A stretch of DNA of 64,000 nt from Nitrospirota bacterium (GTDB lineage: Bacteria > Nitrospirota > Thermodesulfovibrionia > Thermodesulfovibrionales > UBA9159), in assembly GCA_963699545.1 (NCBI GenBank), contig CAVOUE010000005.1:192001-256000 (forward strand), read 5' to 3'. Position numbers and translations under genes: made by a program. The notes beneath the pieces are model-generated. The model searched no databases, had not been told where the DNA came from, and saw nothing but the letters and a program-made list of their open reading frames with translations. Position 1 is the stretch's first letter. Each line of letters starts with the position of its first letter. This document shows positions 7,890-26,027 of the stretch, piece by piece.

Positions 7890-8399
7890 TCACAGATCGC
7901 CCTTGTCGCTCATCCTGCGGATTCGTACCGAACGCTTCAACGCTCTCATAATGACATACAGGCGGGATTCAAAAAGACTGATCGCCGCGATCAGACAACT
8001 GACAGTGCTCCACATCTTTGCTTCAAGGTCCATATATATCGGACCATTCTCAACTGCACAAACCTTACCGAGAATTTCCCTGTCCCGAACAGGCTCATCC
8101 GGAATGACCAGCGCGTCCCCCTTCGTCTGGAACGTGATTCCCTCAGTGTCATTTTCACCTCTCCTGACGATCCGGTGAACCACCGGCCGGCCCTCATGAT
8201 TTCTGAAGAATATCAGATCTCCTCGCTTCAGCGAATTGCGGGGTACCTTTCTTATGGTCACAATTTCTCCCCCGTGGAGGAAAGGGTTCATGCTTCTCCC
8301 TGTCACCCTCACCCGGAGAGAAGCCCCCCTGCCGAGGATATCTTCGAAAAGCCCGACACAGCAGGGCAATGGGATTTCAGCGCGCTTTTTCACCCACAT
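7890..8399 (-). CDS. S24/S26-family (signal peptidase I-like, Ser-His type) peptidase without an evident N-terminal membrane anchor
   Basis: VTGRSMNP (catalytic Ser), GDLIFF, VVHRI (His), TKGD; last gene of the RiPP cassette. Confidence 0.8.
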   Translation of the reverse strand: MWVKKRAEIPLPCCVGLFEDILGRGASLRVRVTGRSMNPFLHGGEIVTIRKVPRNSLKRGDLIFFRNHEGRPVVHRIVRRGENDTEGITFQTKGDALVIPDEPVRDREILGKVCAVENGPIYMDLEAKMWSTVSCLIAAISLFESRLYVIMRALKRSVRIRRMSDKGDL

Positions 8400-9346
8400 C
8401 TCCTTTCTCGGCGATGAGCGAACTCTGCCAGGAAGCCTGCAACGTCCCTGCCAGGCCTGAAGGAGAGCTCATACGCGGGGATATTGGTGATGAGTTCATC
8501 GCAGAACGACAGGACCTTTGCCGTCGCCTCTCGATCATACCAGGGGACCGAGACAACCGGGAGGAGCCGCCTGCCCGATTCCGGACCGCCCAATTCCAGA
8601 ACCAGGTTATGCTCAGCATGGGCAAGGAACATGATGCCCGCAAGCGGGACACCCTTGTTCAAAGCATCTCCGGCCTCGCCGGGCCATGGAGTTCCGAACA
8701 CATAGAAGTCGTTCCCGATCTTTCGTACAACGACCCTGTCGTCACTCAGCACATCGCACCGGGCGGCATCCGCGAACTGTCTTGCCAGTGTACTCTTCCC
8801 TGAGCCGGACCGTCCCGGGAATATATATCCCTTCCCCTGCATATCCACCCCTGCCGCATGGATAAGGATACCTTCTCGCCCGGCGAGGGCGTACATTAAG
8901 AGAAGCTGATCAAGAGGATAGCTGAAGGGATTCCTGATCATTTCTTTGCCTTCGACTTCCACGATGTCCATTTTTCCGCAATAGATGATCGCCGTTTCAA
9001 AACGCCGGTCAAAGCGGGCTATGCACTCCGGTCCATCCCCGAGAGAAGGGTTGAGGACCAAATAATATTCGTCTCCCTTTTTGAACATGGACCAGGAACC
9101 CCTGCCTTCAAAGACTTCGGTCAAGTCTTCGATGGCGGGGAGACTCCCCGTCTCAAGATTCACATCGATCGTAAAAAAGCCGGCATCACCAGCCGTGGCG
9201 TCTGTTAAGAAAGACGCGTATGGTGCATTCGGGGGCTCAATCAGTATGGGCAGATCTCTGCAGTGTATGGCGAAGCGGACGTCTGCTATCACGATGTTCA
9301 GCAGGCACACTCTTTGTAAACTTCCCTTATCAGTTCGTAAACACAA
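8390..9346 (-). CDS. HPr-kinase-related P-loop kinase of a peptide-modification cassette (start uncertain)
   Basis: LIHAAGV, Walker A GRSGSGKSTL, LSDDRVVVR, FGTPWPGE. Confidence 0.75.
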   Translation of the reverse strand: MCLRTDKGSLQRVCLLNIVIADVRFAIHCRDLPILIEPPNAPYASFLTDATAGDAGFFTIDVNLETGSLPAIEDLTEVFEGRGSWSMFKKGDEYYLVLNPSLGDGPECIARFDRRFETAIIYCGKMDIVEVEGKEMIRNPFSYPLDQLLLMYALAGREGILIHAAGVDMQGKGYIFPGRSGSGKSTLARQFADAARCDVLSDDRVVVRKIGNDFYVFGTPWPGEAGDALNKGVPLAGIMFLAHAEHNLVLELGGPESGRRLLPVVSVPWYDREATAKVLSFCDELITNIPAYELSFRPGRDVAGFLAEFAHRRERRCG

Positions 9347-9349
9347 CCA

Positions 9350-9538
9350 TTATGACGCATACGCACCGGGCACCGAGCAGGGCGCAAACCCGCACATGCC
9401 AGTACTGCCATGCTTCCCCGGCGCCCCGCTGGCGGTCTTGCAGCCGATAGCCAATACCTCTTCAGCAACCAGCGGAATCACACTTAATCTCGGCTTCTCA
9501 TACGGGTGCTTGCGCTTTTCTTCCTGCTTTTTTGTCAT
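9350..9538 (-). CDS. Putative RiPP precursor peptide, 62 aa
   Basis: MTKKQEEKRKHPYEKPRLSVIPLVAEEVLA-IGCKTASGAPGKHGSTGMCGFAPCSVPGAYAS; YxxPxL leader motif, 3 Cys, AAGGAG RBS, lies between the rSAM and kinase genes. Confidence 0.85.
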   Translation of the reverse strand: MTKKQEEKRKHPYEKPRLSVIPLVAEEVLAIGCKTASGAPGKHGSTGMCGFAPCSVPGAYAS

Positions 9539-10634
9539 GATTGTCTCCTTCCGAATTGTAATCCTTTATGCGCTGATACCGAAGCTCTCCCATTCTGCAG
9601 ATATACTGAGACGGGACATCCTCTGCCCCGTTTTCCAGTCTGAAAAAAGCAGGACAATAACCGCACAGATTGATCTTCTCGCAGCCTCTACAAGAGAAGT
9701 CAGGCGACGCTTTCTTGCTTCGCAGCCGAGATACGATATCACTCCATGCCGCCGCGAATCCGCTTCCCGAGAGCATGTGTTGAACATCACCTGTCATGAG
9801 ACAGGGCTGGAGACAACCGTTGGGTCCGACGTGAAAGCTGGTCAGCCCGGCGCCGCACCCATACAGTTCATCGAACAGCAAATGCTCTTTTGATTCCTCA
9901 TAAAAGGATCCCCAACGCTGAATTGTCTCCTCGTCAGAAAATTCCATTTCTATGGCTCTTTCGGGAGCAACCCTCAGCTCGATCGGGGCTCTCTCCCCAC
10001 CCATGCCGGCTGATATCGCAGCGTCAAACCGGAACCTGGCCCCGAATTCCTTGGCAATCCTCTCCATAGCAAATAATTCATGGCTGTTTACCGTCATGAG
10101 AACCGTTTTAAGGCTAATCTTCACGCTGTTCGCCACAAGAGCCTTTATGCCGCGCAGACACTTTTCGTAAGACCCCTGCACTCCTGTCACTCTCTCATAC
10201 GTGGATGCCGTAGCCCCATACAGACTGATCTCCACGAGAAGGGGCGGCAGAGCTCTGAAGAGATCAATGATGTCATTCCTGAGCAGCGTACCATTAGAAA
10301 AGACCGTGACCAAAAGACCCTTTTCCTTTGCATACCGATAAATTTTGGGGAAGTCGTCACGAAGAAGCGGCTCCCCTCCCGTAACCAACAGGTTCAGACA
10401 CCCAGCCTCGGTTATTTCATCAATGAGAGAGAGAATCCTGTCGCTGCTCATTTCACCACGCCTCAGTTCCCGTCCCTTTGCATCGGAGCCCAGATAGCAA
10501 TGGATGCATCTGAGATTGCAGGCATGGGTCACCTCAATGCTCCCCGAAAGCGGAATATGAAGCCGCCGGGCTTTCATAAGGAACCGTGCCAGGTAGTTTT
10601 CGGCGCTCAACTCTGTCTGCTCCCGGCAGTGCAT
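9498..10634 (-). CDS. Radical SAM enzyme with SPASM domain
   Basis: CNLRCIHC (CxxxCxxC), TGGEPLLR, SPASM cysteines CGAG...PC...CRGCEKINLCGYCP...C. Confidence 0.93.
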   Translation of the reverse strand: MHCREQTELSAENYLARFLMKARRLHIPLSGSIEVTHACNLRCIHCYLGSDAKGRELRRGEMSSDRILSLIDEITEAGCLNLLVTGGEPLLRDDFPKIYRYAKEKGLLVTVFSNGTLLRNDIIDLFRALPPLLVEISLYGATASTYERVTGVQGSYEKCLRGIKALVANSVKISLKTVLMTVNSHELFAMERIAKEFGARFRFDAAISAGMGGERAPIELRVAPERAIEMEFSDEETIQRWGSFYEESKEHLLFDELYGCGAGLTSFHVGPNGCLQPCLMTGDVQHMLSGSGFAAAWSDIVSRLRSKKASPDFSCRGCEKINLCGYCPAFFRLENGAEDVPSQYICRMGELRYQRIKDYNSEGDNHDKKAGRKAQAPV

Positions 10635-10636
10635 CT

Positions 10637-10957
10637 TCAGCCCGTCCTTTCACGAACCAGCCCTGCCTCCAGGAGGCCCTCAATAAACTCGCAAATATCT
10701 GCCCCGGCAACCTGCTGATTCACATCAAACTGCTCTACAACATCGTTGCGGATGTCGTTTAAGCTTTCTGTTCCATCCAGCCTGTCCCAGATATATTCAG
10801 CAACCGCGGTGAGGGCGAATATCTTCTCCATGTCAGCAAGCTTCCCCTTAACCGGCACAAGGAAAAGCTCGCCGGCGATCTTGCGGGAGACTACATCCTT
10901 GTCCCGCATAAAGACCCTGCCCAACGCGTCGCTGTTTAAGGGCTGTACCAATCCCAT
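10637..10957 (-). CDS. PqqD-family RiPP recognition element (RRE)
   Basis: About 100 aa, VVSRKIAGELFLVP...IFALTAVAEYIWDRLDG...DICEFIEGLLEAGLV; adjacent to rSAM. Confidence 0.9.
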   Translation of the reverse strand: MGLVQPLNSDALGRVFMRDKDVVSRKIAGELFLVPVKGKLADMEKIFALTAVAEYIWDRLDGTESLNDIRNDVVEQFDVNQQVAGADICEFIEGLLEAGLVRERTG

Positions 10958-10962
10958 CCGCT

Positions 10963-13900
10963 CTATTTCAGCCTGAGCGCGGGATCGCCAATGATGTTAT
11001 ACATATCAATCATGGATGGCACCGTTCCCTTTGTCCTGTATTCTGTGAAGGCCTTCACTACCGCCTCTCCCAGTGTCTTTTTCCCTCCGGAGAAGACCGC
11101 CTTGTAGAATTCACTGTTGAGTACTTCAGCCTCTGAGTTGTCGGACAACCCGGTGGCCGACCAAACTGCTGCTGCTCCGCCGCCCGTCTTCAACAACATG
11201 GACTCGCTCAGCGAGAGGTAATCCGGCAGCGCAAACTCGCCTGCAGCACAGGTCATGGCAACCATAACCGGAAGTCCGTTCCCATTGGTCAGGGAATCCA
11301 CCTGGAGGGCATCCGGATACCAGCTACTGCTGGCAAAAATCGACCAGTTTGAGAGAACATCTATTCCGGCGTGGCCAATATAGTTAAAGAACGAGGCGCC
11401 GTTGTTCAGGTAGGTCGAAAGCATCGCCCTGGCCTCATCGAAAGAATGTTCGGCAAGGTATACCCTCTCCCGAATGTAATTCGACGGGAACAGGGCGGCC
11501 ATCACTTCACTGTTGAGCGTAAAGTTGCCTCCCCCATCAGGGTAATCCGCAAGCAGGACGGCCCGGTTCCCCGGGGTGCTTTCGAATGTCTTTATCTTGT
11601 TAATGATATTCTGCACATCGTCAGGAACGAGGATAGGAAGTCGTCCTATTGCCATATCGGGCACATGGTCGCCGTTCACATCCGCCAGGTAATTGTCAGA
11701 TGTCACAAGCCCGTATGATGTCGGCACCAATGCGGGGGGTATGAGATTCCCGCCCGCGCCCAGGTTATCCCTGTAGTCCCATGTCCCATTTCCTGCCAGC
11801 ACTATGTATCGTGGGGCCTTTTTCCAATTGTGGTATGCATAGGACAGGAACAGCCTGATCGCCTCGGGGCTTGAGAGTCCGAAATTGAATTCGTTCATGA
11901 TATCATCCACCTTCACCACCATTGCTTTCAAGCCCTGTGCTTTCCTGTAAAGGGCAAGAGGCTGTACCGCCGGGACCAGTTCTCCAGGCGCGATGATAAG
12001 ATAATCGGCCGAGAGATCCTTCGATCGCAGACCCGCTGGAACAACCGCGCGTCCATTGCCCACTTTCACGACCGCATCAGCTGCAACAGCCAGATAGAGT
12101 GCATCGGCTGAAACGGGTTTAACGCTGATCCGGTAGTTCCCTGGCGCACCATCAATGGTCGTGGCGGTGTTCAACTTCGGAGACTCGGCATCCGTAACGT
12201 CAAAGAGAAGGATGTCCGGCGTCGCAGTGGTGAACCCGCTGACGGTCACGGTATTGTTCCCGTCCCCTCTGAAGAAGAGTCTGTTCCCCGATGCGGTGTA
12301 AAGCCGTTCGTAGGTGAGGTCAAAGGAGTCTATGAGGAACATGCTCCAGGGAACGCCTGCATCCAGAACCCCTTGCACCTCGATCGTGTTTTGCCCGTCA
12401 TTGAGCAAAGACTGGCTGAAAGTGGCAGTCAGGGTATAAGGATTCAAACCTTCCCATTGTCCCTCACCTATCTGCTGACCATTGAGCCTTACTATAACGT
12501 GGTGGTCGGGGTTCGTCCCCGCATCGGAGCCGCCAAAAAGATGCACTTGGAGCGTAGCCGCAGTATTCGTATCCGCTTTCCCGTATCCGGAGAACGTGAA
12601 GCTCTTGGGGCCATCACTGTACGAAGCGCTCAGGAAGATCAGGTCCCAGTCCCAGAAGTCAACTCCGGGGTCATCGAGCTGCATATTGGGGATCAGGTCC
12701 TGTTCGATATGCAAGGTCTCCGTAAAGGCCTTGTTACCGGGTGCAGGGACAGGGTGCGGTCCTGTCTGATAATTCATGGTCGCGCCCTTGTCGGTATCGA
12801 TCCAGTAGATGTTATCGCGTGTATATACACTGTCCGTTGCCGTACCATAGAAGAACATGCCGGTGTCATGGTTGGCGGCCAAATAGGCGACAGGGTTGCC
12901 CTGATTGCTCACCGACAACCTGTCATGAGCGATAAGGGACGAAATTTTTGAAGAGGAACTGCCAAGCAGCTTCGCCAGATCACCAGCATCCACGTAATAG
13001 ATCCCGTTTGCGGTCACGGGTATCTTTACACGGGTTCCCACAACAGATGCCTGGCTTGTTCTGACCAGCTGGGCGGATTCGTTTGCAGCCTTTGCGGCCT
13101 GCACGCGGGATTCCTTGAATGCAGAATGTTCCCGTGCGCTGCGGTTGTAGTCGGAAGGATGGAACGAGTTCGCCCTGCCGGACGTCTTTACCGAGCGGTC
13201 CGTTATCCCGCCGGAAGGGGCGTCATTTCCCCCTTCCACAGACACGGTAAAGGGACCGTATGAGATCTGATCGCCGCTCCTCTCGACCTCGACAAGTCTA
13301 TATTGGTATACCTCACCAGGGAACGCCCCCTTGTCGATGATCGTGTATGTTCCGCCTCTGCGGGAGGTGATGACGCCGGGCAGTAAGCCCTCGGTCAAGC
13401 TCCGGTATTCGCCCGTGGCGGCGTCCAGCCTCAAAAGGTAAAAGCCCAGGGTATTATGCTCGGAGGCCGTCTCCCACTCCACTACTACCTGACCGTCATG
13501 CTCATGTGCGCCGAAGAAGGAGAGAACGACCCGTGTGGGGACGACAGGACTGGCGTAGCCGAAATGGACATTGGATTGATTGCCACCGCTGAGATCCACG
13601 GTTTCCTGGCCGTTGAAAGGCCCGGTTGTGCCTTCGGTCTTCTCATAGGTGGGGAAGTAGCCGCTCAAAACACCGGTGTTATCCGTGACCTTGACAGTAT
13701 AGGTGCCGCTCGCCAAGCCACTGAAGCTATAATTTCCGGTGGCGGCAGTGGAGGTCGTTGCAACGGTATTACCCCCCTGCAACAGAGAGATCGTCACTCC
13801 GCCTATGCCTGCTTCACCGCCGTCAATAGTGCCATTGTTATTATTATCACTCCAGATGTTCCCTGACACGCTGCGGGACGTCGTGGCCTGGTAGCCAAAG

Positions 13901-16900
13901 TTCTTATCCAGGGAGTTACCCCCACCGACTATGCTCGCGCCCTGCTGCTGCCCGGTCGTCACCCCATCGCTGTCAGTTCCGCTGAACGTGTAACCGCCGG
14001 GCGGAGATTCGATGCTTACGATATAATTCCCATTGCTCAGCCCGGAGAAAACGTAATTGCCGTTGGCATCAGTGGTCACGGTTGTAATCAGTGTGTCGCC
14101 ACCGTTTATCTGTCCGTTCCCGTTCACATCGTTGTACAACTTTACGCTGACTCCGCTGATTCCCAGTTCGCCCGTCTCCTGGCCGTTAATGCCGTTGATA
14201 TCGTTAAACACTGTACCGGCAATGCTCCTTCGCAGATCATAACCGAAGTTAGGAGCTGAGCTATAATCAACATTGGCGGTGACGTTTATAACCTGCTTTG
14301 TACTGGAAATAGCTGAACTCGTCGTGCCGAAGTAATTGGCCAGTTTCGCGTTCGTGTCGGTGACCTTGATGGTATAGTCCGCCCCTCCTCCAGTAACCCC
14401 GGAGAAAGTGAAATATCCATTAGCATCGGTGGTCGTGGTCGCAATGACATTGAGACTGGCATCCAGCAAATCCAGCGTCACCAGAGCGATACCCGTCTCG
14501 CCCACATTCACAGAACCATTGCCATTGGCATCGAACCAGACCCTGTCTGTGATGGAGTAAGTCGTCCCGCTGTGATAGCCGAAGTTCGCATACTGGATGA
14601 CGTCGCCTGCGCTGAGGTTATTGATAAAGAGCGGATCGTTAGGTGGCGCCGTCCTCGTATACCCTGTCAGTTTCGCCTGGCTCCCGTCAACATATACGAA
14701 GTAATCCTCACTACCGGTGGCCGGCACCCCGGTGAACAGATAGCTGCCGTCAGGCGCGGTAGTGGTGGAACCCCACAGGGTATCACCGGCTCCAGGCTCG
14801 AACGTGCCGTTGCCGTTTGCGTCCTGCCAGAGCTGGACCGTTACTCCGCCCAGTCCGGGTTCACCTGCATCGCGACTGCCGCTACTGTTCGCGTCGCTCC
14901 AGATCGAGCTTCTGATGGTGGCGCTCCCCGGAGCAGACTTATAGCCCAGATCCGCGCCCACGTATGACAAGCCGGCGCTCAGATTGAAGGCATTCGTGCG
15001 GTTGTCGCTGTGACCGGCAGGAGCGGACTGCTGTAGACCGGAAGGAAGCGTCCCCGGGGTTATTTCGATGTAGTATCCATTACCGGATTCCACGCCAGTA
15101 AACAAGTAATGACCTGTGGCGTCTGTCGTGGTTGTCATGACCGAGGCCCCGAGCCAGTTCTTCAGTGTCACGTCAACGTTGGCGAGCCCCGGCTCACCCA
15201 GATCCAAAACGCCGTTGCCGTTGGCATCGAGCCAGACGCGGTCGCCCACTTCAGCGCTCCCGGAAGACGGGTTGACGACGATGTTGGTAACGCTTGCAGT
15301 GAGCGCTAACGGGATTTCATTGCTGTTGACAAAAGCCGTGTTGGTGATCTGTTCGATCCCGCTGGCCAGGGGGTTATCCACTGTGACGTTGTACGTCAGG
15401 GTGAGGGAGTTACCTGGCCGGATACGACAACCGGTCCCGCCGGACAGGAGATCGGGCGGACTGCCGGTCGTAAAAGTACCGAGTAAACCGTAGCTGATAT
15501 CCACATTATCGACGGAGAAAGTCTTGTTGGTGGCATTGAATCCCCCGGTGACCCGAAAGCGTATCGTCGTATTGGCAGAGATATAGGGTGTGAGATTGTA
15601 AGGAGGAGCAACATTCGGAGTGCCACCCGTGAAGGTCGCCAGGGTCGTAAATGGACCCGCTGCGCTAGTGCTGGCCTCCACCACCAACGTATCGCCGGCC
15701 ACGAGGTTAGCGGAGCCGTAGCTGAAGTTGAGCAGCGGATTCACCGCACCTGTGAGATCGGCGGTGCGCTGGACCTGAGTCCCTGAGGCGTTGGCAGGGA
15801 CGTTGTAAATTATGTCCACATTGTCGAGGTAGACTAGGTCGCCTCCAGCATTCCAATTCTGACCGGCACGGAATCGAACAGTGAGTGTATTGTTGCCGGC
15901 CAAGGCAATGGTTAACGTTTGGTTGTTCCCGCTCCAGCCGCCAGTACCTCCATCGTACGTACCGATGTTTACATAACCGCCACCGTCCAGGCTGTACTCC
16001 GCAACCAGCGTCTCGCCCCCATCGAATCCCCCGTCAGTTGGAGTAAAGCTGATTGTGGCGCTCGTTGCGCCAGTTACAGTCGCAGTCCTTAAGATCGCAT
16101 CGTTTGCCTGACATTGCGTAAATTCCAACCGGTTATTTCCATTGCTGAGCCGTATAGTTCCGGTGCTGTAATCGGGAGCGCCCGCATCGTTCTCTTCCGT
16201 CCAGCTGCCGGCCCAATTATTTGAACCATAATTTCCGCCATAAGTATTGTTGGTGGTGAACTCATCCCGCACATTCGAGAGCAAATATCTGAACTGCAAC
16301 TGGCCTCCGGTGATCCATACGAATCCACCTGTCGCCCCGGTTGCGCCGCCGTAACTGTCCGTCTCGGTCCAGTTGCCCGCCCAGTTGTTAGTATTGTTCG
16401 GGCCGTTGTTGGTGTAGGCGGAAGCCGCAAACTCGTCGCGGACGTTCCGCGGCAACTCACAGGTCACTGACCCGCTGGCCGCCACATAGGTCACCCCGTC
16501 GGGAAGCGGGTCGTACACAGATACACCTGTGAAGGCCGCCGCCGAAGGGTTTGTCACGGTGACGGTATAGGTGAACTGGTTTCCAGGGTATAGAGGGCTG
16601 GGAGCGTTTGAGGTCTTTGTCACACTCAGATTACCATAGCTGTTGAACGCAAAGTCGGAAGCGACAAAGGTCTGGGTCGCTCCTGCCACGGTTCTGGTTC
16701 CGCTCGTCTGGACCACATTGCGGGTGATATCGCCCACATTGAAGTTCTGTGTTGTCTGGGCGGTGAACGTGACGGTTATCGTCTGGTTTGCAGCCATATT
16801 GCCGAGCATACTGCTGGGCCAGGTCAGGATCAAATTACCGCCGCTTATCGTGGGATTTGCGGATCCGCCGCTGACCGTTGTCATGTCCGCGATGGTGATC

Positions 16901-18618
16901 GTAGTGCTGTTGTTCACATACTGCCAGCCTGTAGGGAGGGTGTCGACCACGCTGATCCCTGCGACGTCAAAGTGATAAGAATTAATCACGAGCGTATAGG
17001 TGGATTGCGCACCCGCCGTCGTTGAGACTACAACCGGGTTGGCTGATTTCTTTACCGTAAGTACCTTGTCAATAAAATCACCGCCGGGGAACGAAACATA
17101 CCCCAGATCAATGGCCGGGGCTGCCGTAGGAGAAGTATCAGGGTTCTGGCCGTATGCGATCGCAATGGGACCGGTGGCCCAGACATGGGTGTTCGACAAA
17201 TTGCCGTCCCCTGTATCGTACACGTATTGTGTCTGGAGGCGGTTCAGCGTGTAGGTCTGGTCAGGGATCCCGTCATCGTTCGTATCGATAAACACCCGGG
17301 TATTGTCCTGGACCGGGGTAATAAAAATCCCGGAGTCATCGTAATTTGCCGCAAGGATAGGAGTCGCGTAAGCCCCCGGCGCCCAGCCGAAGAAATGCTC
17401 GTTCCCGAGCAGAAATGACGGCACAAGGGGATAACCCCATTCATGGGTTGGTCCCCCCGTGTCGATCGTCGACACTCCCCAGAAGACCTCGCTCGCTTTC
17501 ACGTAGACCCCCGAACCTGCAGGCACGTAGCCTCCTGTCATCTCACTAAATGAACGCGTCTGCCCGGCCGGGACACTGAATGAACCAGAGGCAGAACTGG
17601 TCTGGTAGTTGATCGTCAGGGCAGAAGACTGCGGGTTAAAGACATAGAGCTGTGTGGGATAATTGGAACCGGCGTCGCTCGGCACAGGGGCATAGTACTC
17701 GTTGTCCCACATGCCGCTCGGAAAGGCGCTGAAGCCGCGTGCTTCAAACGTCGCGGTCTGATCTCCCACGATATAGTTCACCTGCAGGGTATCGGAGCCC
17801 TGTATGACTGTCCCCGTAGGCAGGGATACTGCGCCCGTAGTCGGAAACGGGGCGAAACGATCAAGCAGGAAGACCTCTCCGGAATTGAGCGTTACCTGCG
17901 TTGCAGTCTGGGTGCAGGGATTATTATGGCTTATGCAAACGGTATCGCCAAAGGTCCCGTCCTTATTGAAATCGAAGGTAACAACCGTGTTATCCTTCGT
18001 GGCCTGAATCAGTGCAAACACCCTTCTGAAATCGAGATAGTTGCGGGGGGCACCATAAAGGTCGTCGCCAAAGGGGAGGATATACCTGACCATTTGCGGC
18101 TTGACAGGATAAACCTCCCATGCCAAAGAAAACACCGTCCCGTCAGTCTCCTCCCAGCTCGTTCGTGTGACGGTAACGACTCCACCGGCAACATAGATTC
18201 GATCCCGGCCGTCGTAGTAAGTTGCGGTCCCCCTCGGGTTCACCGGTATATTGGAGCTCTCAAATATCCTGCTGTCTCCGGCATTGGCCAGGACGTACTT
18301 TTCGTCGGCTGTCGCATCGGGGTTGTTCGGGTCGAAATTATATCCGTTCTCCCATTGGTCGTAGTAGATTGTTGTATTCGGCGACCATGCGACAACGCTG
18401 ATGATTGTGTGCCTGGGAGCGGTGAGCGCAACAGGACCCGCCGCGCCGATGTCGGCCCAAACCTGTCCCAAAATGTTTTCATCACCGGGGATAAAGTATT
18501 CCGAGTAACCCGCAGGAGCAGCGCCATAGCTGTACGTTGCGCATGACAAAAAAACCATAAGACTTAGGAAAAATTTATAGAGGGCTGTCATTGATCTCAG
18601 GAATGTCTTTGCGGTCAT
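10963..18618 (-). CDS. Giant (2551 aa) secreted surface protein: IgGFc-binding-like N-terminus, DUF11-type domains, five SdrD-B-like repeats, C-terminal C25 (gingipain/PorU-like) peptidase
   Basis: Signal-peptide-like N-terminus; DUF11 motifs (VTKTS...TYTVTVTN...VYDPLP); GDRVWLDANGNG-type repeats; C25 motifs ADYLII, LAGNGTWDY, IGRLP, YIGHAG, AMTCAAG, YNIIGDPAL. Uninterrupted ORF. Confidence 0.88.
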   Translation of the reverse strand: MTAKTFLRSMTALYKFFLSLMVFLSCATYSYGAAPAGYSEYFIPGDENILGQVWADIGAAGPVALTAPRHTIISVVAWSPNTTIYYDQWENGYNFDPNNPDATADEKYVLANAGDSRIFESSNIPVNPRGTATYYDGRDRIYVAGGVVTVTRTSWEETDGTVFSLAWEVYPVKPQMVRYILPFGDDLYGAPRNYLDFRRVFALIQATKDNTVVTFDFNKDGTFGDTVCISHNNPCTQTATQVTLNSGEVFLLDRFAPFPTTGAVSLPTGTVIQGSDTLQVNYIVGDQTATFEARGFSAFPSGMWDNEYYAPVPSDAGSNYPTQLYVFNPQSSALTINYQTSSASGSFSVPAGQTRSFSEMTGGYVPAGSGVYVKASEVFWGVSTIDTGGPTHEWGYPLVPSFLLGNEHFFGWAPGAYATPILAANYDDSGIFITPVQDNTRVFIDTNDDGIPDQTYTLNRLQTQYVYDTGDGNLSNTHVWATGPIAIAYGQNPDTSPTAAPAIDLGYVSFPGGDFIDKVLTVKKSANPVVVSTTAGAQSTYTLVINSYHFDVAGISVVDTLPTGWQYVNNSTTITIADMTTVSGGSANPTISGGNLILTWPSSMLGNMAANQTITVTFTAQTTQNFNVGDITRNVVQTSGTRTVAGATQTFVASDFAFNSYGNLSVTKTSNAPSPLYPGNQFTYTVTVTNPSAAAFTGVSVYDPLPDGVTYVAASGSVTCELPRNVRDEFAASAYTNNGPNNTNNWAGNWTETDSYGGATGATGGFVWITGGQLQFRYLLSNVRDEFTTNNTYGGNYGSNNWAGSWTEENDAGAPDYSTGTIRLSNGNNRLEFTQCQANDAILRTATVTGATSATISFTPTDGGFDGGETLVAEYSLDGGGYVNIGTYDGGTGGWSGNNQTLTIALAGNNTLTVRFRAGQNWNAGGDLVYLDNVDIIYNVPANASGTQVQRTADLTGAVNPLLNFSYGSANLVAGDTLVVEASTSAAGPFTTLATFTGGTPNVAPPYNLTPYISANTTIRFRVTGGFNATNKTFSVDNVDISYGLLGTFTTGSPPDLLSGGTGCRIRPGNSLTLTYNVTVDNPLASGIEQITNTAFVNSNEIPLALTASVTNIVVNPSSGSAEVGDRVWLDANGNGVLDLGEPGLANVDVTLKNWLGASVMTTTTDATGHYLFTGVESGNGYYIEITPGTLPSGLQQSAPAGHSDNRTNAFNLSAGLSYVGADLGYKSAPGSATIRSSIWSDANSSGSRDAGEPGLGGVTVQLWQDANGNGTFEPGAGDTLWGSTTTAPDGSYLFTGVPATGSEDYFVYVDGSQAKLTGYTRTAPPNDPLFINNLSAGDVIQYANFGYHSGTTYSITDRVWFDANGNGSVNVGETGIALVTLDLLDASLNVIATTTTDANGYFTFSGVTGGGADYTIKVTDTNAKLANYFGTTSSAISSTKQVINVTANVDYSSAPNFGYDLRRSIAGTVFNDINGINGQETGELGISGVSVKLYNDVNGNGQINGGDTLITTVTTDANGNYVFSGLSNGNYIVSIESPPGGYTFSGTDSDGVTTGQQQGASIVGGGNSLDKNFGYQATTSRSVSGNIWSDNNNNGTIDGGEAGIGGVTISLLQGGNTVATTSTAATGNYSFSGLASGTYTVKVTDNTGVLSGYFPTYEKTEGTTGPFNGQETVDLSGGNQSNVHFGYASPVVPTRVVLSFFGAHEHDGQVVVEWETASEHNTLGFYLLRLDAATGEYRSLTEGLLPGVITSRRGGTYTIIDKGAFPGEVYQYRLVEVERSGDQISYGPFTVSVEGGNDAPSGGITDRSVKTSGRANSFHPSDYNRSAREHSAFKESRVQAAKAANESAQLVRTSQASVVGTRVKIPVTANGIYYVDAGDLAKLLGSSSSKISSLIAHDRLSVSNQGNPVAYLAANHDTGMFFYGTATDSVYTRDNIYWIDTDKGATMNYQTGPHPVPAPGNKAFTETLHIEQDLIPNMQLDDPGVDFWDWDLIFLSASYSDGPKSFTFSGYGKADTNTAATLQVHLFGGSDAGTNPDHHVIVRLNGQQIGEGQWEGLNPYTLTATFSQSLLNDGQNTIEVQGVLDAGVPWSMFLIDSFDLTYERLYTASGNRLFFRGDGNNTVTVSGFTTATPDILLFDVTDAESPKLNTATTIDGAPGNYRISVKPVSADALYLAVAADAVVKVGNGRAVVPAGLRSKDLSADYLIIAPGELVPAVQPLALYRKAQGLKAMVVKVDDIMNEFNFGLSSPEAIRLFLSYAYHNWKKAPRYIVLAGNGTWDYRDNLGAGGNLIPPALVPTSYGLVTSDNYLADVNGDHVPDMAIGRLPILVPDDVQNIINKIKTFESTPGNRAVLLADYPDGGGNFTLNSEVMAALFPSNYIRERVYLAEHSFDEARAMLSTYLNNGASFFNYIGHAGIDVLSNWSIFASSSWYPDALQVDSLTNGNGLPVMVAMTCAAGEFALPDYLSLSESMLLKTGGGAAAVWSATGLSDNSEAEVLNSEFYKAVFSGGKKTLGEAVVKAFTEYRTKGTVPSMIDMYNIIGDPALRLK
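13560..15250 (-). repeat. Five tandem SdrD-B-like domain repeats within the giant protein
   Basis: VGDRVWLDANGNG..GEPGL; IRSSIWSDANSSG..GEPGL; ITDRVWFDANGNG..GETGI; IAGTVFNDINGING..GELGI; VSGNIWSDNNNNG..GEAGI. Confidence 0.85.
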
Positions 18619-18995: not shown

Positions 18996-21353
18996 TCACT
19001 TTCCGCCCAGTTCTTTCAGTCTTCTCTGGGCATTCTTGTCACGCGGATTCAGGACCAGCACATTCTCGTACTCCTCTCTCGCACGATGGAATATATGCAG
19101 CTTGTCATAAAGTTGCGCAAGATTAGACCTCAGTCCGTAGTCCGACGGATGATTCTTCACCCCTTCTTCGCAAAAAAACAGCGCCTGTTCAAGCTCGCCT
19201 TTTTTCTGATATATTCCTGTTATCCTGTAATATGCTTCACTCCCTGCGGCCCCTGTCCTTTTCATAACAGCGAGCGCGTCGAGATAGCTGTCCAATGCCT
19301 CCTGGATATCGCCCTTTTCTTCTCTATACTTCCCGTAAAGGAGCAGCGCAGATGGCGTATCGGGGATTGCGCCCCTTATTTCATCCGCGGTGAGTCTGCT
19401 CAGGGCAAGAGCGGTAATGTATTTCCCTGTATTATCGGGATCGAAGGCTATCGCCTCTTTCATCTCTTGTATCGCTTCCTCCTTCCGCCCCTGGGAAAAG
19501 AGCCACAACGAGTAATTCTTGCGCATCCATGCCGACATCGGGTCATAGAGCACCGCAAGTTTCATATATCTTGCCGCCCTGTCGTTGTCGCCTGCATTGC
19601 CGTAGGCAACACCCAGCATCTGCAAATACTCGCCGCGAACGGGATTCAGGGCCACCGCTCTCGAGAAATTGCCGACCATCTTTTCCTTCTTCCCGAGGGC
19701 ATAGTCGATAGTGCCCTTTGCAAAAGGCAGCCTGGCATCGAAGGGACTCAGTATGGCGGCCTTTTCCAGCATCGCCTCTTTTAAGGCAAGCTCCGACCCC
19801 TCCCTTAGCGACCCTTTTGCGAGCGAGTAGAGGACGTCGGCACCAGCATTGAACACGGGGATGGCGCAGATTAAAATACCCGTTACCCCAAGCCCGGCGA
19901 TCAGCCATTTTCTCGTCTGCTGCGGGATCCCTATCTCTCTCTCCCTGAGGTGTGTCCCTCCGTTTCCTTCTTTAACCCTTGCATGCGACACAGCCACCGC
20001 AAAACCCATCAGAAAACAAAAGTAAAGGCCGTTCGCGCCCAGCCGCAGGTTGAAGTCGGTCAGGCTGTGAATCATGATCGCTGTAATTCCTGTCACTGCG
20101 CCCAGAGAGAGGAGCCGCGAAGAGAGCGATTTCCGTCTCCTGAGCATCACGAACATTTTCCTGTAAAACGATCCCATGATATAAAGCATTATCAACAGTC
20201 CCGACAGACCGAGTTCGGCAGCGCCTTCTATGTAATCATTGTGAGCATGTTCCCAACGCTCCTGCGTCAGCACTGTCTTATAGCGGGGATAGACGTGCTC
20301 ATACGTTCCAAGGCCCGTACCGAACAGAGGGTATGCACGTATTATCTTCAGCGAATCTTTCCAGTTCTGTATCCTGTATTCACGGGAAGCGTCTGCGTAC
20401 CTTATTTTTTCGAACCGCTCAAAGACCGGTCCCCAGCCGAACCACCCGACGCTGAACAGCACAACGAGAAACAGCGCGACGATGGTCCGCCCCTTCTTTC
20501 TTGTTGAGTCTCTCAGCCAAAGCATCATCCCGAAGAAGAGCATCGAGAGGCTTAGTCCTATTATCCCGCCCCTTGACAGGCTCAGGAAGAGTGACGTACT
20601 CATGATCACCGCCGCGGTCCAGGCGAGAATAGCCCGGTTTGCCCGTCTGTGGGAAAAAAAATCGGCCACGGTCTTCTTTATGTCGCTGTCGCCCTTCGTT
20701 CCGGGGAGAGTATAGATGAGAAATCCGACACAGACAGGGATGAGCATCTCCATGAGACCGGCAAAATGGTTCCTGTTCACATACGGTCCAAAGGGCTGAC
20801 CCACCTGGCTTAATTCCCTGAACCAGAGCAGTTTCCCGTTCCACAATATCAGCTGGAATATTCCCAGGAGCGCGCAGCATGTCCCGATGACAAGGATGAC
20901 CTCGGTCATCAGGGTTATGGATCGTCTGTCTCTCAGCATCTGGACCGTAAGGCAATATACGCATGTGTATGCGATAAACCTCGCTATCTCCAAAAGGGTC
21001 GCATGGGGATAAAGGGAAATGGTAAGCCAGGGAAGAGCGCTTGTGTGGGGAAGATTCTCAGAGTAGACCCGGTATGTCTGGGGCGAAAGCACTTGGACAA
21101 ATGACGGAGGCATCGGAACGAGCTGCATGATTGCGAGTCCCAGGAGCAACACGACAGGCAGAAGAAAGGGCGGCTCTATGACAGAGATCGTCGTTTCCTT
21201 CTTGAACAGCCGGAAAAGCCACAGGAATAACAGAGAGATGCAAAGCACCTCCATTAGCGCAAGCGACCAGGGCTCAACCGTACCGAATAACAGGGGAGCG
21301 AGGAAAAGGAGGCAGATAAAACCGCGCTGAATGGCCTTCTCTACATCGATCAC
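18996..21353 (-). CDS. O-antigen ligase/Wzy-like membrane protein with C-terminal TPR region
   Basis: Multiple TM helices, GPYVNRNHFAG, SLSRGG, PLFGTGLGTY, HAHNDY; TPR-like helices in the last ~280 aa. Confidence 0.85.
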   Translation of the reverse strand: MIDVEKAIQRGFICLLFLAPLLFGTVEPWSLALMEVLCISLLFLWLFRLFKKETTISVIEPPFLLPVVLLLGLAIMQLVPMPPSFVQVLSPQTYRVYSENLPHTSALPWLTISLYPHATLLEIARFIAYTCVYCLTVQMLRDRRSITLMTEVILVIGTCCALLGIFQLILWNGKLLWFRELSQVGQPFGPYVNRNHFAGLMEMLIPVCVGFLIYTLPGTKGDSDIKKTVADFFSHRRANRAILAWTAAVIMSTSLFLSLSRGGIIGLSLSMLFFGMMLWLRDSTRKKGRTIVALFLVVLFSVGWFGWGPVFERFEKIRYADASREYRIQNWKDSLKIIRAYPLFGTGLGTYEHVYPRYKTVLTQERWEHAHNDYIEGAAELGLSGLLIMLYIMGSFYRKMFVMLRRRKSLSSRLLSLGAVTGITAIMIHSLTDFNLRLGANGLYFCFLMGFAVAVSHARVKEGNGGTHLREREIGIPQQTRKWLIAGLGVTGILICAIPVFNAGADVLYSLAKGSLREGSELALKEAMLEKAAILSPFDARLPFAKGTIDYALGKKEKMVGNFSRAVALNPVRGEYLQMLGVAYGNAGDNDRAARYMKLAVLYDPMSAWMRKNYSLWLFSQGRKEEAIQEMKEAIAFDPDNTGKYITALALSRLTADEIRGAIPDTPSALLLYGKYREEKGDIQEALDSYLDALAVMKRTGAAGSEAYYRITGIYQKKGELEQALFFCEEGVKNHPSDYGLRSNLAQLYDKLHIFHRAREEYENVLVLNPRDKNAQRRLKELGGK

Positions 21354-23529: not shown

Positions 23530-23539
23530 ATGTCGTTGA

Positions 23540-24343
23540 TCAGAAGAAGCTCTCGGGAACCACAATCACGTCATCAGGTCTGACGAGTTCATTGAGCCCG
23601 ACCTTCTCCAGAGTCTTCTCCTTTCCCTCTTCCATCCTCTTTATCTTTATTCGCCTCTCCGCTGCTTTGTCGGTAAATCCTCCTGCCATAGTGATCGCCT
23701 TGAGGACAGTAGTGCCTTCTTCGTACTTATACACATCAGGCTTCTTCACCTCTCCGCTCACGTAGAAGAATCCCGCCTTCTGAATGTAGATGCTGTCCCC
23801 GTCCTGCAGGCTCATATCAGCACTCGTATCACCCTTTTCTACCAGTCGTTTCAGGTCAATGGTGAACGTCTGCTCGCCCTGCTTCAGTTTGCGCTTCACG
23901 ATTGCCTTGTCCCCTGCGTCCTTTGTGATACCTCCTGCCCTTGAGAGAAGTTCCAGAAAGCTCGTTTGTCCAGGGAGTTCGTACAGGCCCGGCCTCGAAA
24001 CTTCTCCAATAGCCGTCACCTTCTTGCTCCTGAACTCCTCGATGAACACAATCACCTGGGGATTAACGATGAAGCCGTTGGCGAGCAGTTCGCTGATCTT
24101 GCCCGCTATCTGCGGTATCGTCAGTCCCGACACCTTCACCTCTCCCAGGAGAGGAAAGAAGATCGTGCCCTCACCGCTCACCCTTGCAAGGCTGGAAAGG
24201 TCAGCATGGTCGTATACGGTAATACGGAGCACGTCCCGCTCTCCCACCACATAGTCCTGGGAAAGCACCACAGAGCGGAGCGTCGTCAACACAAGCACGG
24301 CCAGAAGGACTAGGCACAGCACTGCTGTCCGGCGACTTAGCAT
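23540..24343 (-). CDS. Polysaccharide export protein, Wza/SLBB family
   Basis: DYVVGERDVLRITVY, IFFPLLGEVKVSG, two SLBB motifs (GEVSRPGLY, GEVKKPDVY), PDDVIVVPESFF. Confidence 0.9.
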   Translation of the reverse strand: MLSRRTAVLCLVLLAVLVLTTLRSVVLSQDYVVGERDVLRITVYDHADLSSLARVSGEGTIFFPLLGEVKVSGLTIPQIAGKISELLANGFIVNPQVIVFIEEFRSKKVTAIGEVSRPGLYELPGQTSFLELLSRAGGITKDAGDKAIVKRKLKQGEQTFTIDLKRLVEKGDTSADMSLQDGDSIYIQKAGFFYVSGEVKKPDVYKYEEGTTVLKAITMAGGFTDKAAERRIKIKRMEEGKEKTLEKVGLNELVRPDDVIVVPESFF

Positions 24344-24353
24344 CTTTCTTACC

Positions 24354-25502: not shown

Positions 25503-26027
25503 CTACGGTTGAACCGGACTTACTGTGCCTGTACCACCTCCTCCTCCACCGATGACGGGAGCGAATGTTGGTGTGTATCCAGGGGTTACCGGCGGCGGGG
25601 TATAGCCAAGCCCCGGCAATCCGAGTCTCTCTATGGTCCTTGCCAAAACATCAGTATCGACACCCGCCTCGATCAGACACGTCACAATAACAGGCGATGT
25701 GGCCCCTGCCCTGTATGCTGCGGTTATGACATCTTCCAGTTTTCCCCCCGCCTGTATCGCGCACCGCACCACCACGCATGCAGGATGACCCATCGCTATC
25801 GCGTTATTCACTATATCAGAGGTGTTTCCTCCGGACCGTATCATGTCGCTCACCACTGAACAGATCCCCTTACCGCCGGAAAGGGCATCTGCGATACTGT
25901 CCCTGACGGAATTATCAAGCGCGCCCTTATTCCCCACCTGGCAAGGCGCAGAAGCTGGTAACAGGCTGATCAGCACGACAACGCTGAAAAGCAAGGTTGC
26001 AACGGCTCTTTTTCTGTTCATCAGCAC
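25503..26027 (-). CDS. Hypothetical secreted protein with short helical repeats and Pro/Gly tail
   Basis: Signal peptide, repeated V(V)xxAIxAG units with Cys, tail GLGYTPPPVTPGYTP...GGGGGG...SPVQP; its stop codon abuts the next ATG. Confidence 0.65.
   Translation of the reverse strand: MLMNRKRAVATLLFSVVVLISLLPASAPCQVGNKGALDNSVRDSIADALSGGKGICSVVSDMIRSGGNTSDIVNNAIAMGHPACVVVRCAIQAGGKLEDVITAAYRAGATSPVIVTCLIEAGVDTDVLARTIERLGLPGLGYTPPPVTPGYTPTFAPVIGGGGGGTGTVSPVQP

Follow-up and report, generated by a model that had tools for sequence, protein, structure and literature searches.

The short open reading frame that lies between a radical-SAM/SPASM gene and an HPr-kinase-like gene in a 64,000-nucleotide stretch of Nitrospirota DNA (hereafter the window) is a real gene that is widespread and under purifying selection. 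Its product is probably a RiPP-type precursor peptide that is matured by a cassette representing a distinct sibling of the uncharacterised SynChlorMet system. Sets of HPr-kinase-like, PqqD and radical-SAM/SPASM proteins have already been catalogued under the SynChlorMet name; what is pinned down here is the substrate of a large sister family, with a signature strict enough to make the chemistry directly testable. All precursor modifications in our model are predictions. Ranked by likelihood, the proposed steps are docking of the leader on the PqqD protein, cross-linking by the radical-SAM enzyme, phosphorylation of the Ser at the C terminus, and removal of the leader by an S26-type peptidase.

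A conserved precursor gene and its cassette

The precursor gene starts with an ATG at position 9538, upstream of which the window sequence carries GGAAGGAG with a 6-nt spacer. Translation of the minus strand gives a leader that includes HPYEKPRL...AEEVLA and a core, IGCKTASGAPGKHGSTGMCGFAPCSVPGAYAS, in which the cysteines are spaced C-x15-C-x4-C and the final residue is Ser. The description of leader, core, cysteine spacing and Ser end in the first-pass annotation matches this translation exactly. Comparison of the precursor with NCBIfam and Pfam produced zero matches to any known family, and a scan for promoters and terminators between positions 7300 and 11200 returned counts no higher than chance. 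A look-up of expression data listed zero sequencing runs for positions 7800–11000.

A homologue search with the precursor recovered 31 other proteins of 59–68 aa (E values from 1.8e-20 to 1.6e-15), all of which keep Y13, P16, AEEVLA, C33, K34, C49, C54 and S62 unchanged. Searching 1.84 billion representatives with a profile then gave 1681 cluster representatives at E ≤ 0.001 and 199 at E ≤ 1e-10. Among the best 150 of these 1681, every sequence carries Y..P-x16-C[KR] and CK, and 144 have exactly three core cysteines. Of the same 150, 145 end in Ser, three in Thr and two in Arg, with both Arg-ended representatives having garbled, frameshift-like cores. Lys34 is invariant in these 150 and likewise in 100 unique family sequences, of which 99 end in Ser and 98 have a Tyr-to-Cys spacing of 20 residues. 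The fixed signature of the family is Y-x-[KR]-P-x-[LI], 16 residues from the Pro to an invariant Cys-Lys, two more cysteines usually 4–5 apart, and a C-terminal Gly-Ser. The window copy is slightly atypical in that its first two cysteines are separated by x15 versus a family mode of x13, and in that it ends in AS versus GS in 97 of the 100.

From 15 pairs among six close relatives, we obtained a dN/dS value of 0.17 for the whole precursor and 0.13 for residues 12–60. A chance open reading frame is ruled out by the homologues, the profile matches and these values. The first-pass annotation had proposed to look for conservation of its motifs near related radical-SAM genes, and YxxP, AEEVLA.GCK, the three cysteines and the terminal Ser are indeed all kept in the short open reading frames found there. 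A reading of the leader as a lipobox or Sec signal was rejected by inspection, as the leader is charged (the EE of AEEVLA) and Asn often precedes Cys33 (21 of 100 sequences).

The cassette consists of a PqqD chaperone, a radical-SAM/SPASM enzyme, the precursor, an HPr-kinase-like protein and an apparently soluble S26-type peptidase, and a gene for a giant C25 protein usually adjoins it (Table 1). In the window, the 3′ end of the radical-SAM gene overlaps the precursor start by 41 nt, and the PqqD gene starts 5 nt past the stop of the giant gene. The precursor lies between the radical-SAM and kinase-like genes in all 20 loci of a sample from the phylum, which contain the kinase-like gene in 20 cases, the radical-SAM gene in 19, PqqD in 18, the S26 gene in 19 and the C25 gene in 13. 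A second set comprises 49 loci from named MAGs with at least five phylum labels, and it was gathered with the precursor alignment and is thus biased to precursors with AEEVLA..CK. Here the counts are 49 for the precursor, 47 for the radical-SAM enzyme, 46 each for PqqD and the kinase-like protein, 33 for S26 and 43 for C25. When all open reading frames of these 49 loci were clustered, no further conserved neighbour, exporter, immunity gene or tailoring gene was found. The system is wide, with 1681 cluster representatives, but uncultured; the named matches come from MAGs that carry the labels Nitrospirota, Acidobacteriota, Desulfobacterota-type, Pseudomonadota and Actinobacteria.

Full-text literature searches returned no paper on the cassette or on HPr-kinase-like proteins coupled to PqqD and radical-SAM/SPASM proteins, and none by the name SynChlorMet. 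The terms kinase, Scm and GeoRSP are all absent from the main text of PMC10288494, whose supplements may list the enzyme group.

Table 1. Coordinates of the precursor gene, its parts and the neighbouring features in the window.
Feature	Position	Strand	Size	Basis or content
S26-family peptidase, Sec11/SipW (Ser/His) type	7890..8399	−	169 aa	TIGR02228, PF00717, PF10502
HPr-kinase-like (ScmC-like) P-loop protein	8390..9346	−	318 aa	listed from TTG start
Precursor peptide gene	9350..9538	−	62 aa	sequence and Shine-Dalgarno, conservation, dN/dS 0.17
Precursor core	9353–9448	−	~residues 31–62	C33-K34, C49, C54, C-terminal Ser62
Precursor leader	9449–9538	−	~residues 1–30	Y13-x-x-P16-x-L and AEEVLA
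Radical-SAM/SPASM enzyme	9498..10634	−	378 aa	PF04055 at 2.7e-22
PqqD-family peptide chaperone (RRE)	10637..10957	−	106 aa	PF05402 at 1.8e-13
Giant secreted protein	10963..18618	−	2551 aa	C-terminal Peptidase_C25 (gingipain/PorU-like), PF01364 at 2.9e-77
Exopolysaccharide export block	18996..26027	−		context only, lineage-specific; NCBIfam names

Proposed leader recognition and kinship with SynChlorMet

SynChlorMet (Scm) is the closest known system and is defined in databases by TIGR04248 (ScmD), TIGR04249 (ScmC), TIGR04250/04251 (ScmE/ScmF), TIGR04252 (ScmA) and PF27840 (ScmC). The locus that we used as its reference (L062), where the ScmC model scores 328.7 bits, shares with the window the order PqqD, radical-SAM/SPASM enzyme, precursor(s), HPr-kinase-like protein and S26-type peptidase. 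Its precursors likewise have a Y-x-K-P-x-L leader, a first Cys about 15–20 residues further on, and Gly/Ser-rich cores with cysteines. Nevertheless, the proteins of the window stay far below the SynChlorMet cut-offs (ScmC, 31.5 versus 125; ScmD, 35.3 versus 100; ScmE, 91.2, and ScmF, 81.5, versus 400), and the ScmA model has zero matches here at E ≤ 1. The window cassette also differs in having one radical-SAM enzyme instead of two, and a single precursor with exactly three cysteines and a Gly-Ser end, whereas the SynChlorMet locus encodes four to five precursors that are longer, contain many cysteines and have no Ser end. Finally, where the SynChlorMet locus has an ABC exporter, the window cassette has the giant C25 protein instead.

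In the first of the proposed steps, the YxKPxL leader would dock on the PqqD protein and the core would be presented to the radical-SAM enzyme. A PqqD partner for the YxxP leader, as assumed in the first-pass annotation, is present in the cassette; its best NCBIfam match is ScmD, at 35.3 bits versus the cut-off of 100. Besides PqqD family membership and the fixed Tyr-to-Cys distance, docking is suggested by a structure prediction of the PqqD–precursor complex, a check that the annotation had also proposed. The complex scored 0.50 versus 0.00 for the best of three controls, which was graded as weak support, with at least 95% of contacts shared between runs and a partner pLDDT of 52. Note that 116 of 157 solved complexes and 2 of 215 mismatches attained the pass mark for this score, and that passing scores of 0.60 or less came from only 18 of the 157 solved complexes but from both passing mismatches. 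The pass may also reflect mere likeness, because PqqD–leader pairs resemble solved complexes.

The YxxPxL motif defines the leaders of lasso peptides. On this ground, the precursor had been annotated as a lasso/sactipeptide hybrid, in which lasso-type recognition is recruited to a thioether pathway. Both the motif and a PqqD partner are present, and HPr-kinase-like kinases with a C-terminal Ser as their target have so far been described, in section 3 of the review PMC9266682, only in lasso clusters. Nevertheless, the hybrid reading was abandoned as highly improbable, as neither a lasso cyclase nor a B2 protease is encoded at the locus and acidic residues are absent from the window core. No open reading frame for an Asn-synthetase-like lasso cyclase occurs in positions 1–30000 of the window, and in the genome to which the window belongs, matches to the cyclase family PF00733 are confined to contigs C7 and C10, as opposed to contig C5, which contains the window. 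The B2 protease family PF13471 has no match at the locus and zero matches in this genome, where its absence is unproven at 86.9% completeness. An acceptor Asp or Glu at core position 7–9 is absent; the window core holds neither residue at any position, and they are rare in the family (20 Asp and 5 Glu over all core residues of the 100 unique sequences).

A further argument against the hybrid comes from the SynChlorMet locus, where the leader motif, the kinase-like gene and the peptidase gene all recur, and from the kinase-like protein, whose nearest Atlas clusters are ScmC (score 0.97). Because the SynChlorMet locus shares them, these features are native to the radical-SAM cassette family. Likewise, because the SynChlorMet precursors carry the same Y-x-K-P-x-L, the motif is common to PqqD/radical-SAM cassettes of this architecture and has not been borrowed from lasso peptides.

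Predicted modifications of the core

In the second step of our model, the radical-SAM/SPASM enzyme would form cross-links through the three invariant cysteines, most likely as thioethers of the sactipeptide or ranthipeptide type. In an alignment of 16 sequences, the three residues of its CxxxCxxC motif (C39, C43 and C46) and the SPASM cysteines C260, C278, C315, C318, C324, C327 and C346 show either full invariance or conservation of at least 90%, and the SPASM set is complete. Among PDB entries, the sactisynthase SkfB ranks first both in sequence (1.2e-17) and in fold (4.6e-15), the latter in a Foldseek search with an AF2 model (pLDDT 86.4) in which SuiB, CteB, PqqE and anSME were the other top matches. 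Within the core, no side chain is invariant except those of the three cysteines, Lys34 and the terminal Gly-Ser. Cysteines as the sole invariant reactive side chains in a Gly/Ser/Ala-rich core are the usual picture in sactipeptides and ranthipeptides. Given these observations, we consider thioether chemistry on the three cysteines plausible.

The homology of the enzyme is, however, not specific to thioethers. All NCBIfam models give scores below their cut-offs (AlbA, 77.9 versus 850; SkfB, 76.9 versus 300; PapB, 57.8 versus 340), and of the best full-length matches, which are mycofactocin maturase (1.4e-33, residues 23–324), AlbA and SkfB, the first is an enzyme of C–C bond formation and decarboxylation. 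In fold, SuiB, PqqE, anSME and the epimerase EpeE rank about equal to SkfB and CteB. Moreover, the alignments, including that of the 100 unique sequences, reveal no conserved residue in the core that could accept a thioether. The same precursor and cassette might therefore support a different chemistry, such as a C–C or C–N cross-link, epimerisation, Cys oxidation or a mycofactocin-like change at the C terminus. In that case, the mature peptide would employ its three invariant cysteines as ligands of a metal or iron-sulfur centre, or to form disulfides. The S26 family offers a precedent for a metal-binding product: the NiSOD-maturing peptidase (TIGR02754) exposes a Cys-containing metal hook, and the peptidase of the SynChlorMet locus matches this model weakly, although the S26 protein of the window has no match to it at E ≤ 0.01. 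With thioether-forming SkfB leading the PDB matches in both sequence and fold, and with the cysteine pattern described above, we judge such a non-thioether outcome to be the less likely one.

The system resembles sactipeptides and ranthipeptides of the SkfB, AlbA, CteB and PapB type in its invariant core cysteines and in the complete auxiliary-cluster Cys set of its radical-SAM/SPASM enzyme. It differs from them in that the RRE is a standalone PqqD protein, in that none of these maturase models is matched above its cut-off, and in that the cassette adds a kinase-like protein, an S26 peptidase and the giant C25 protein and is without a conserved exporter or immunity gene.

The kinase-like protein is also below the cut-off of every NCBIfam model, the best being HprK_rel_B (1.8e-8), ScmC (1.1e-7) and HprK_rel_A (3.4e-6), and an alignment of its relatives suggests that translation may in fact begin about 20 codons downstream of the listed start. 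Its AF2 model (pLDDT 89.8) matches PEP carboxykinases (1.4e-6) and HPr kinase/phosphatase 1ko7 (1.9e-5) in Foldseek. Residues H163, GxSGxGK184T, D202-D203-R204 and GTPW are invariant in 19 sequences. As described in section 3 of the review PMC9266682, a His-Lys-Asp-Asp set is essential in lasso-peptide kinases, whose target is the C-terminal Ser of the linear precursor; by that description, as opposed to an alignment, H163, K184, D202 and D203 would correspond to this set.

In the third step, we propose that the target of the kinase-like protein is the invariant C-terminal Ser, whose side chain it would phosphorylate while the precursor is still linear, as PadeK and ThcoK do with paeninodin-type lasso precursors. 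Consistent with this are the invariant His, P-loop Lys and Asp-Asp, the HprK/PEPCK-like fold, and the fact that the terminal Ser/Thr is the sole conserved hydroxyl of the core (Thr35 occurs in only 49 of the 100 unique sequences). By analogy with the lasso kinases, the kinase-like gene just downstream would be the best explanation for the invariance of the terminal Ser. Note that a kinase-like protein of the ScmC clade need not act on a C-terminal Ser, because the SynChlorMet precursors do not end in Ser though ScmC keeps the P-loop and Asp-Asp.

The parallel with the phosphorylated lasso peptides (paeninodin and pseudomycoidin; kinases PadeK, ThcoK, SyanK and PsmK) includes an HPr-kinase-like gene beside a precursor with a conserved final Ser, a PqqD-type chaperone with a YxxPxL leader, and the His, P-loop Lys and Asp-Asp residues, for which the kinases were compared through their description in section 3 of the review PMC9266682. 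The present system differs in that its main modifying enzyme is a radical-SAM/SPASM protein, and in the absence of the lasso cyclase, B2 protease and acidic core acceptor. In a term search of PMC4289311, too, HPr kinase comes up solely in connection with lasso clusters. Should the terminal Ser prove to be phosphorylated, RiPP precursors other than those of lasso peptides would join the targets of kinase tailoring, which section 3 of the review PMC9266682 describes for lasso peptides alone.

Proposed leader removal and the giant C25 protein

In the fourth step, the S26-type peptidase would cut off the leader inside the cytoplasm, with the cut most likely falling behind the V-L-A of AEEVLA. The peptidase scores 63.0 bits with TIGR02228 (cut-off 51.85), and its boxes GxSMxP, GD, HR and TxGD are invariant in 12 sequences that include the peptidase of the SynChlorMet locus. 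When the 35 residues preceding the catalytic Ser are inspected, neither the window protein nor any of 11 relatives shows a hydrophobic stretch, and no N-terminal membrane anchor is evident. The first-pass annotation had also placed cleavage near EEVLA, and a cut after VLA would fit the rule of small residues at −3 and −1, where the 100 unique sequences have Val in 91 and Ala in 87 cases, respectively. Two observations count against this step: the S26 gene is beside the cassette in only 33 of the 49 cross-phylum loci, and a minor precursor subfamily has Leu at −1 of the proposed site.

A second candidate for this cleavage is encoded next to PqqD. The giant protein consists of a hydrophobic N terminus, SdrD-B, DUF11 and Ig-like repeats, and a C-terminal C25 domain (about residues 1930–2551) that scores 260.9 bits with PF01364 (cut-off 23) and 210 bits with the PorU equivalog NF033707, which is below the cut-off of 420 for that model. 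Across 39 sequences, conservation of the catalytic His and Cys (G-H2416 and C2457) reaches at least 95%. Cleavage after Lys is known for some C25 peptidases. The C25 domain might therefore remove the leader extracellularly by cutting after Lys34, in which case Cys33 would be part of the leader, and the S26-type protein would have another job or be dispensable. The invariance of Lys34, the conserved His/Cys pair, the linkage of the C25 gene in 43 of the 49 loci and the lower count for S26 all speak for such a cut. However, Cys33 is as invariant as Lys34 and stands at a fixed distance from the leader motif, and these features are more in keeping with a site of modification than with a residue of the leader. 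Moreover, an export signal is present at the N terminus of the giant protein, whereas the peptide has no conserved exporter in the cassette, and five of the 21 phylum-sample genomes with the cassette have no C25 match over the cut-off, although in one of them the contig is cut at the cassette. We therefore regard cleavage by the C25 domain as improbable, and favour the S26-type peptidase for leader removal.

The near-constant linkage of the giant C25 gene, together with the lack of a conserved exporter, suggests a role unlike that of the usual secreted antimicrobial peptide. Because the C25 protein is the constant partner and no exporter is conserved, a job tied to this protein seems likelier than that of a free antibiotic. 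A more specific proposal, which we advance tentatively and with considerable doubt, is that the cross-linked and C-terminally phosphorylated peptide is a dedicated partner of the giant C25 surface protein, which accompanies the cassette in different phyla. One option is a small subunit with covalent stabilisation, by analogy with QhpC and its dehydrogenase; others are a substrate-like regulator of the protease that presents a Lys, and an acceptor or linker that the sortase-like C25 domain could join to the giant protein or to surface polymer through Lys34 or the phospho-Ser. If correct, the proposal would make this a RiPP-type pathway that serves the biogenesis of cell-surface proteins.

In the QhpC/QhpD system of quinohemoprotein amine dehydrogenase, a small peptide is cross-linked by a radical-SAM/SPASM enzyme and ends up as a subunit of a large exported enzyme, which sets a precedent for a cross-linked peptide working for a protein partner and not as an antibiotic. 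Both systems combine a small Cys-containing peptide, a radical-SAM/SPASM enzyme, a leader peptidase and a gene for a large secreted protein in one operon. There is no sequence relation to show between the two, and the present system differs in that the partner is a C25 peptidase/adhesin-like protein, no exporter is conserved and a kinase-like protein is present.

An exopolysaccharide export block follows in the window and was considered as a component of the cassette. Besides the window, 9 of the 20 phylum-sample loci show this linkage, yet only 2 of the 49 loci across phyla do, and because of this low count we treat the block as lineage-specific context. The block encodes an O-antigen-ligase-like/TPR protein, a Wzc-like chain-length/tyrosine-kinase protein, an EpsE/Wza-like exporter, an EpsL-like outer-membrane protein and a small secreted protein, and its Wzc-like gene is split into three open reading frames in the window.

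The precursor peptide and its family

In the window sequence, GGAAGGAG followed by a 6-nt spacer precedes the ATG at position 9538, where translation of the precursor ORF starts; this start falls within the final 41 nt of the upstream radical-SAM (rSAM) gene. The leader carries HPYEKPRL and AEEVLA, the core opens with IGCK, the Cys residues are spaced x15 and x4, and the final residue is Ser. These motifs had been listed in the first-pass annotation, and the list was correct. Each motif is conserved, as judged from the translation and the family alignments, and the precursor finding is real.

By using a word-indexed search of 5.8 billion proteins, we recovered 31 other members of 59 to 68 residues (E values of 1.8e-20 to 1.6e-15, 61–77% identity). 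Their alignment, in which residues 1–12 are variable, leaves Y13, P16, I21, L23, AEEVLA, C33, K34, C49, G50, P53, C54, S55, G58, Y60, and the terminal S62 invariant. A broader alignment of 26 sequences, extending down to 30% identity, retains Y13, P16, L23, C33, K34, C49, and C54 without exception and K15, E27, G58, and S62 in at least 90% of members. Six close relatives of equal length yielded a dN/dS of 0.17 over 15 pairs, with values of 0.13 for residues 12–60 and 0.38 for residues 1–11. The precursor is a real gene under selection.

Precursor matches were found in 28 of the 401 genomes sampled from the phylum, and the 20 best loci were fetched. The close-family alignment, scanned against a single genome from each GTDB species, provided 49 loci in named MAGs, which are labeled Thermodesulfovibrionales/Nitrospirota, Acidobacteriota (Thermoanaerobaculia, Vicinamibacteria), Desulfobacterales and relatives, Pseudomonadota, Actinobacteria/Acidimicrobiaceae, CSSED10-310, and, in one case, Pirellulales. 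All 49 peptides end in Gly-Ser, a count to be read with the bias of the scan patterns (AEEVLA..CK and CG..PCS..G) toward such features. As an unbiased check, we searched 1.84 billion cluster representatives with a profile, which gave 1681 matches at E ≤ 0.001, of which 199 reached E ≤ 1e-10. The 150 best matches all carry CK and the arrangement Y..P, 16 residues, C[KR]; 144 have exactly three core Cys residues; and 138 end in Gly-Ser. The terminal position holds Ser in 145 of them, Thr in three, and Arg in two, and both Arg-ended precursors have cores that look frameshifted. Among 100 unique precursor sequences from the fetched loci, the spacing between the first and second Cys ranges from 11 to 17 (mode 13), and that between the second and third is 4 in 79 and 5 in 18.

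Organization and enzymes of the cassette

Features of the cassette and their occurrence in related loci (several of the absences among the named-MAG loci fall in loci cut by contig ends)
Feature	Coordinates	Strand	Description	Phylum-sample loci (of 20)	Named-MAG loci (of 49)
Giant protein, 2551 aa	10963–18618	−	Hydrophobic N-terminus; SdrD-B, DUF11, and other Ig-like repeats; C-terminal Peptidase_C25 (PF01364, 2.9e-77)	13 (C25 C-terminal domain directly upstream)	43 (part of the protein)
PqqD-family protein	10637–10957	−	PF05402, 1.8e-13; start 5 nt past giant gene stop	18 (two missing, both at contig ends)	46
rSAM/SPASM enzyme	9498–10634	−	Upstream of precursor	19 (missing one in locus cut by contig end)	47
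Precursor	9350–9538	−	Translation of 62 residues	20 (19 by tblastn, the last by other searches)	
HPr-kinase-like P-loop protein	8390–9346	−	Downstream of precursor	20	46
S26-type peptidase	7890–8399	−	TIGR02228, 63 bits (cut-off 51.85)	19 (one some distance off)	33

Comparison of these loci demonstrates that the peptide is conserved, that its N-terminal half resembles a leader and its core is rich in Gly, Ser, Ala, and Pro, and that its gene is always accompanied by those for a peptide chaperone, an rSAM/SPASM enzyme, and a kinase-like protein. When all ORFs of the 49 named-MAG loci were clustered, no further conserved neighbor and no conserved transporter emerged. Because rpsO and pnp come next downstream, the operon ends after the S26-type gene. 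In a genome from the window's own family, the locus L046 holds two precursor copies with identical cores (15282–15458 and 4770–4949, both −), one following the rSAM gene and the other immediately upstream of the gene for a 2888-aa C25 giant protein, which is thereby bracketed by the copies.

None of the giant, PqqD-family, rSAM, and kinase-like proteins reaches the cut-off of an NCBIfam model; the PqqD protein and the kinase-like protein come closest to ScmD, ScmC, and "HprK-related kinase B". The rSAM enzyme conserves CxxxCxxC and the seven further Cys residues of a full SPASM domain. SkfB is its best PDB match by both sequence (1.2e-17) and fold (4.6e-15), with SuiB, CteB, MoaA, PqqE, anSME, and EpeE close behind in fold, and over its full length it matches the mycofactocin maturase best among NCBIfam models. 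Across 19 sequences of the kinase-like protein, H163, G-x-S-G-x-G-K184-T, D202-D203-R204, and G-T-P-W are invariant. Its AF2 model (pLDDT 89.8) resembles PEP carboxykinases over both domains (best E value 1.4e-6) and HPr kinase/phosphatase (1ko7, 1.9e-5; 1knx), and in the ESM Atlas it adjoins ScmC-named clusters (score 0.97), 23–54% of whose members carry PF27840.

In 12 aligned S26-type proteins, the Ser box (GxSMxP), GD, His box (HR), and TxGD are invariant and no hydrophobic segment precedes the catalytic Ser; from this alignment, the protein resembles a soluble Sec11/SipW-type peptidase. In the C25 domain, the catalytic pair (Gly-His and Cys) is at least 95% conserved among 39 sequences, and the giant protein scores 210 bits on the PorU model (cut-off 420). 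C25 matches over the cut-off occur in 43 of the 401 phylum-sample genomes, including 16 of the 21 cassette genomes, and another family of the phylum encodes C25 proteins of 750–1100 residues without the cassette. In G190, a genome from the same order, a ScmC-like match lies 3.5 kb from a C25 domain on contig C68, but the genome has no precursor match at E ≤ 0.01; this locus may encode a more divergent precursor.

Proposed maturation pathway

A lasso system was rejected: the locus encodes neither a cyclase nor a B2 protease, and the precursor core lacks acidic residues. The "lasso hybrid" label of the first-pass annotation should therefore be replaced. We propose instead that the YxKPxL leader would dock on the PqqD protein. 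Structure prediction of this complex weakly supports docking, with a score of 0.50 in all three runs versus 0.00 for the best of three controls. The runs agree in at least 95% of contacts, and the pLDDT of the partner is 52. Passing scores of 0.60 or less belong to only 18 of 157 solved complexes and to both passing mismatches, and the score may profit from likeness to solved PqqD–leader complexes. The distance from Tyr to Cys33 is fixed at 20 residues in 98 of the 100 unique precursor sequences, which fits a ruler that would place Cys33 in the active site.

The rSAM enzyme would then act on the three invariant Cys residues, most likely as thioether donors, a step proposed because the nearest solved relative of the enzyme is a sactisynthase. 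The match to the mycofactocin maturase and the lack of a conserved acceptor residue for the cross-link in the precursor core count against a firm thioether call.

The kinase-like protein would, by analogy, phosphorylate the terminal Ser. A review of lasso-peptide modifications (PMC9266682) describes PadeK, ThcoK, SyanK, and PsmK as HPr-kinase homologues that act on the linear precursor, adding phosphate to the hydroxyl of its strictly conserved C-terminal Ser. It reports a His-Lys-Asp-Asp set as essential in lasso-peptide kinases, and all four residue types are likewise invariant in the kinase-like protein. The terminal Ser/Thr is also the sole conserved hydroxyl of the precursor core. Against this step, ScmC from a true SynChlorMet locus keeps the P-loop and Asp-Asp, yet its four or five precursors do not end in Ser.

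Finally, the S26-type peptidase would remove the leader by cutting after V-L-A, which would place Val at −3 in 91 and Ala at −1 in 87 of the 100 unique sequences. The alternative, a cut directly before Cys33, would leave Asn, Lys, Phe, His, or Arg at −1 in 28 of these 100.

Relation to SynChlorMet and genomic context

Among known systems, the SynChlorMet cassette, defined solely by database models, comes closest. Full-text searches of the literature found no paper on an rSAM/PqqD/HPr-kinase cassette, SynChlorMet, GeoRSP, or a C25-linked rSAM system. A true example in a genome of the same class (locus L062; ScmC, 328.7 bits) encodes, in order, ScmD, ScmE and ScmF, the precursors, ScmC, an S26-type peptidase (TIGR02228, 53 bits), and an ABC exporter. 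Its four or five tandem precursor genes (4762–6012, +) specify peptides that open with M..EY.KPE[LI]VDL, within the longer leader pattern M..EY.KPE[LI]VDLKNS.A.G.C, followed by Cys/Gly/Ser/Thr-rich cores. On the ScmA model (cut-off 35), these precursors reach no more than 9.8 bits, so ScmA as modeled misses them.

The two cassettes share their architecture and leader motif. However, the window proteins score far below the cut-off on all Scm models, the precursor belongs to a different family, there is one rSAM enzyme rather than two, and the giant C25 protein stands where SynChlorMet has its ABC exporter. The window cassette is a variant of a catalogued but uncharacterized kind, whose chemistry and C25 partner role are testable.

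Exopolysaccharide export genes lie beside the window cassette and recur, in permuted order, in 9 of the 20 phylum-sample loci but in only 2 of the 49 named-MAG loci, which span several phyla, and we take them to be lineage-specific context. A 174-aa secreted protein (25503–26027, −), with a C-terminal tail rich in both Gly and Pro and without an NCBIfam match, is conserved beside the EpsL-like outer-membrane gene in 7 of the 20 related loci.

A Wzc-like chain-length-determinant/tyrosine-kinase gene (21350–23565, −) is split into ORFs 22285–23565, 21906–22280, and 21350–21952; its relatives are single ORFs of about 736–742 aa, and a frameshift, pseudogene, or assembly error could explain the split. 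Three other genes likewise appear as pairs of ORFs that overlap in different frames: an rpoN-like gene (1–1246, +; 1–948 and 878–1246), an M16-peptidase-like gene (3910–5158, −; 4871–5158 and 3910–5100), and a LysM/NlpC-P60-like gene (27664–28781, +; 27664–28680 and 28458–28781). Together, the four split genes suggest indel errors in the assembly, which is 86.9% complete with 5.1% contamination.
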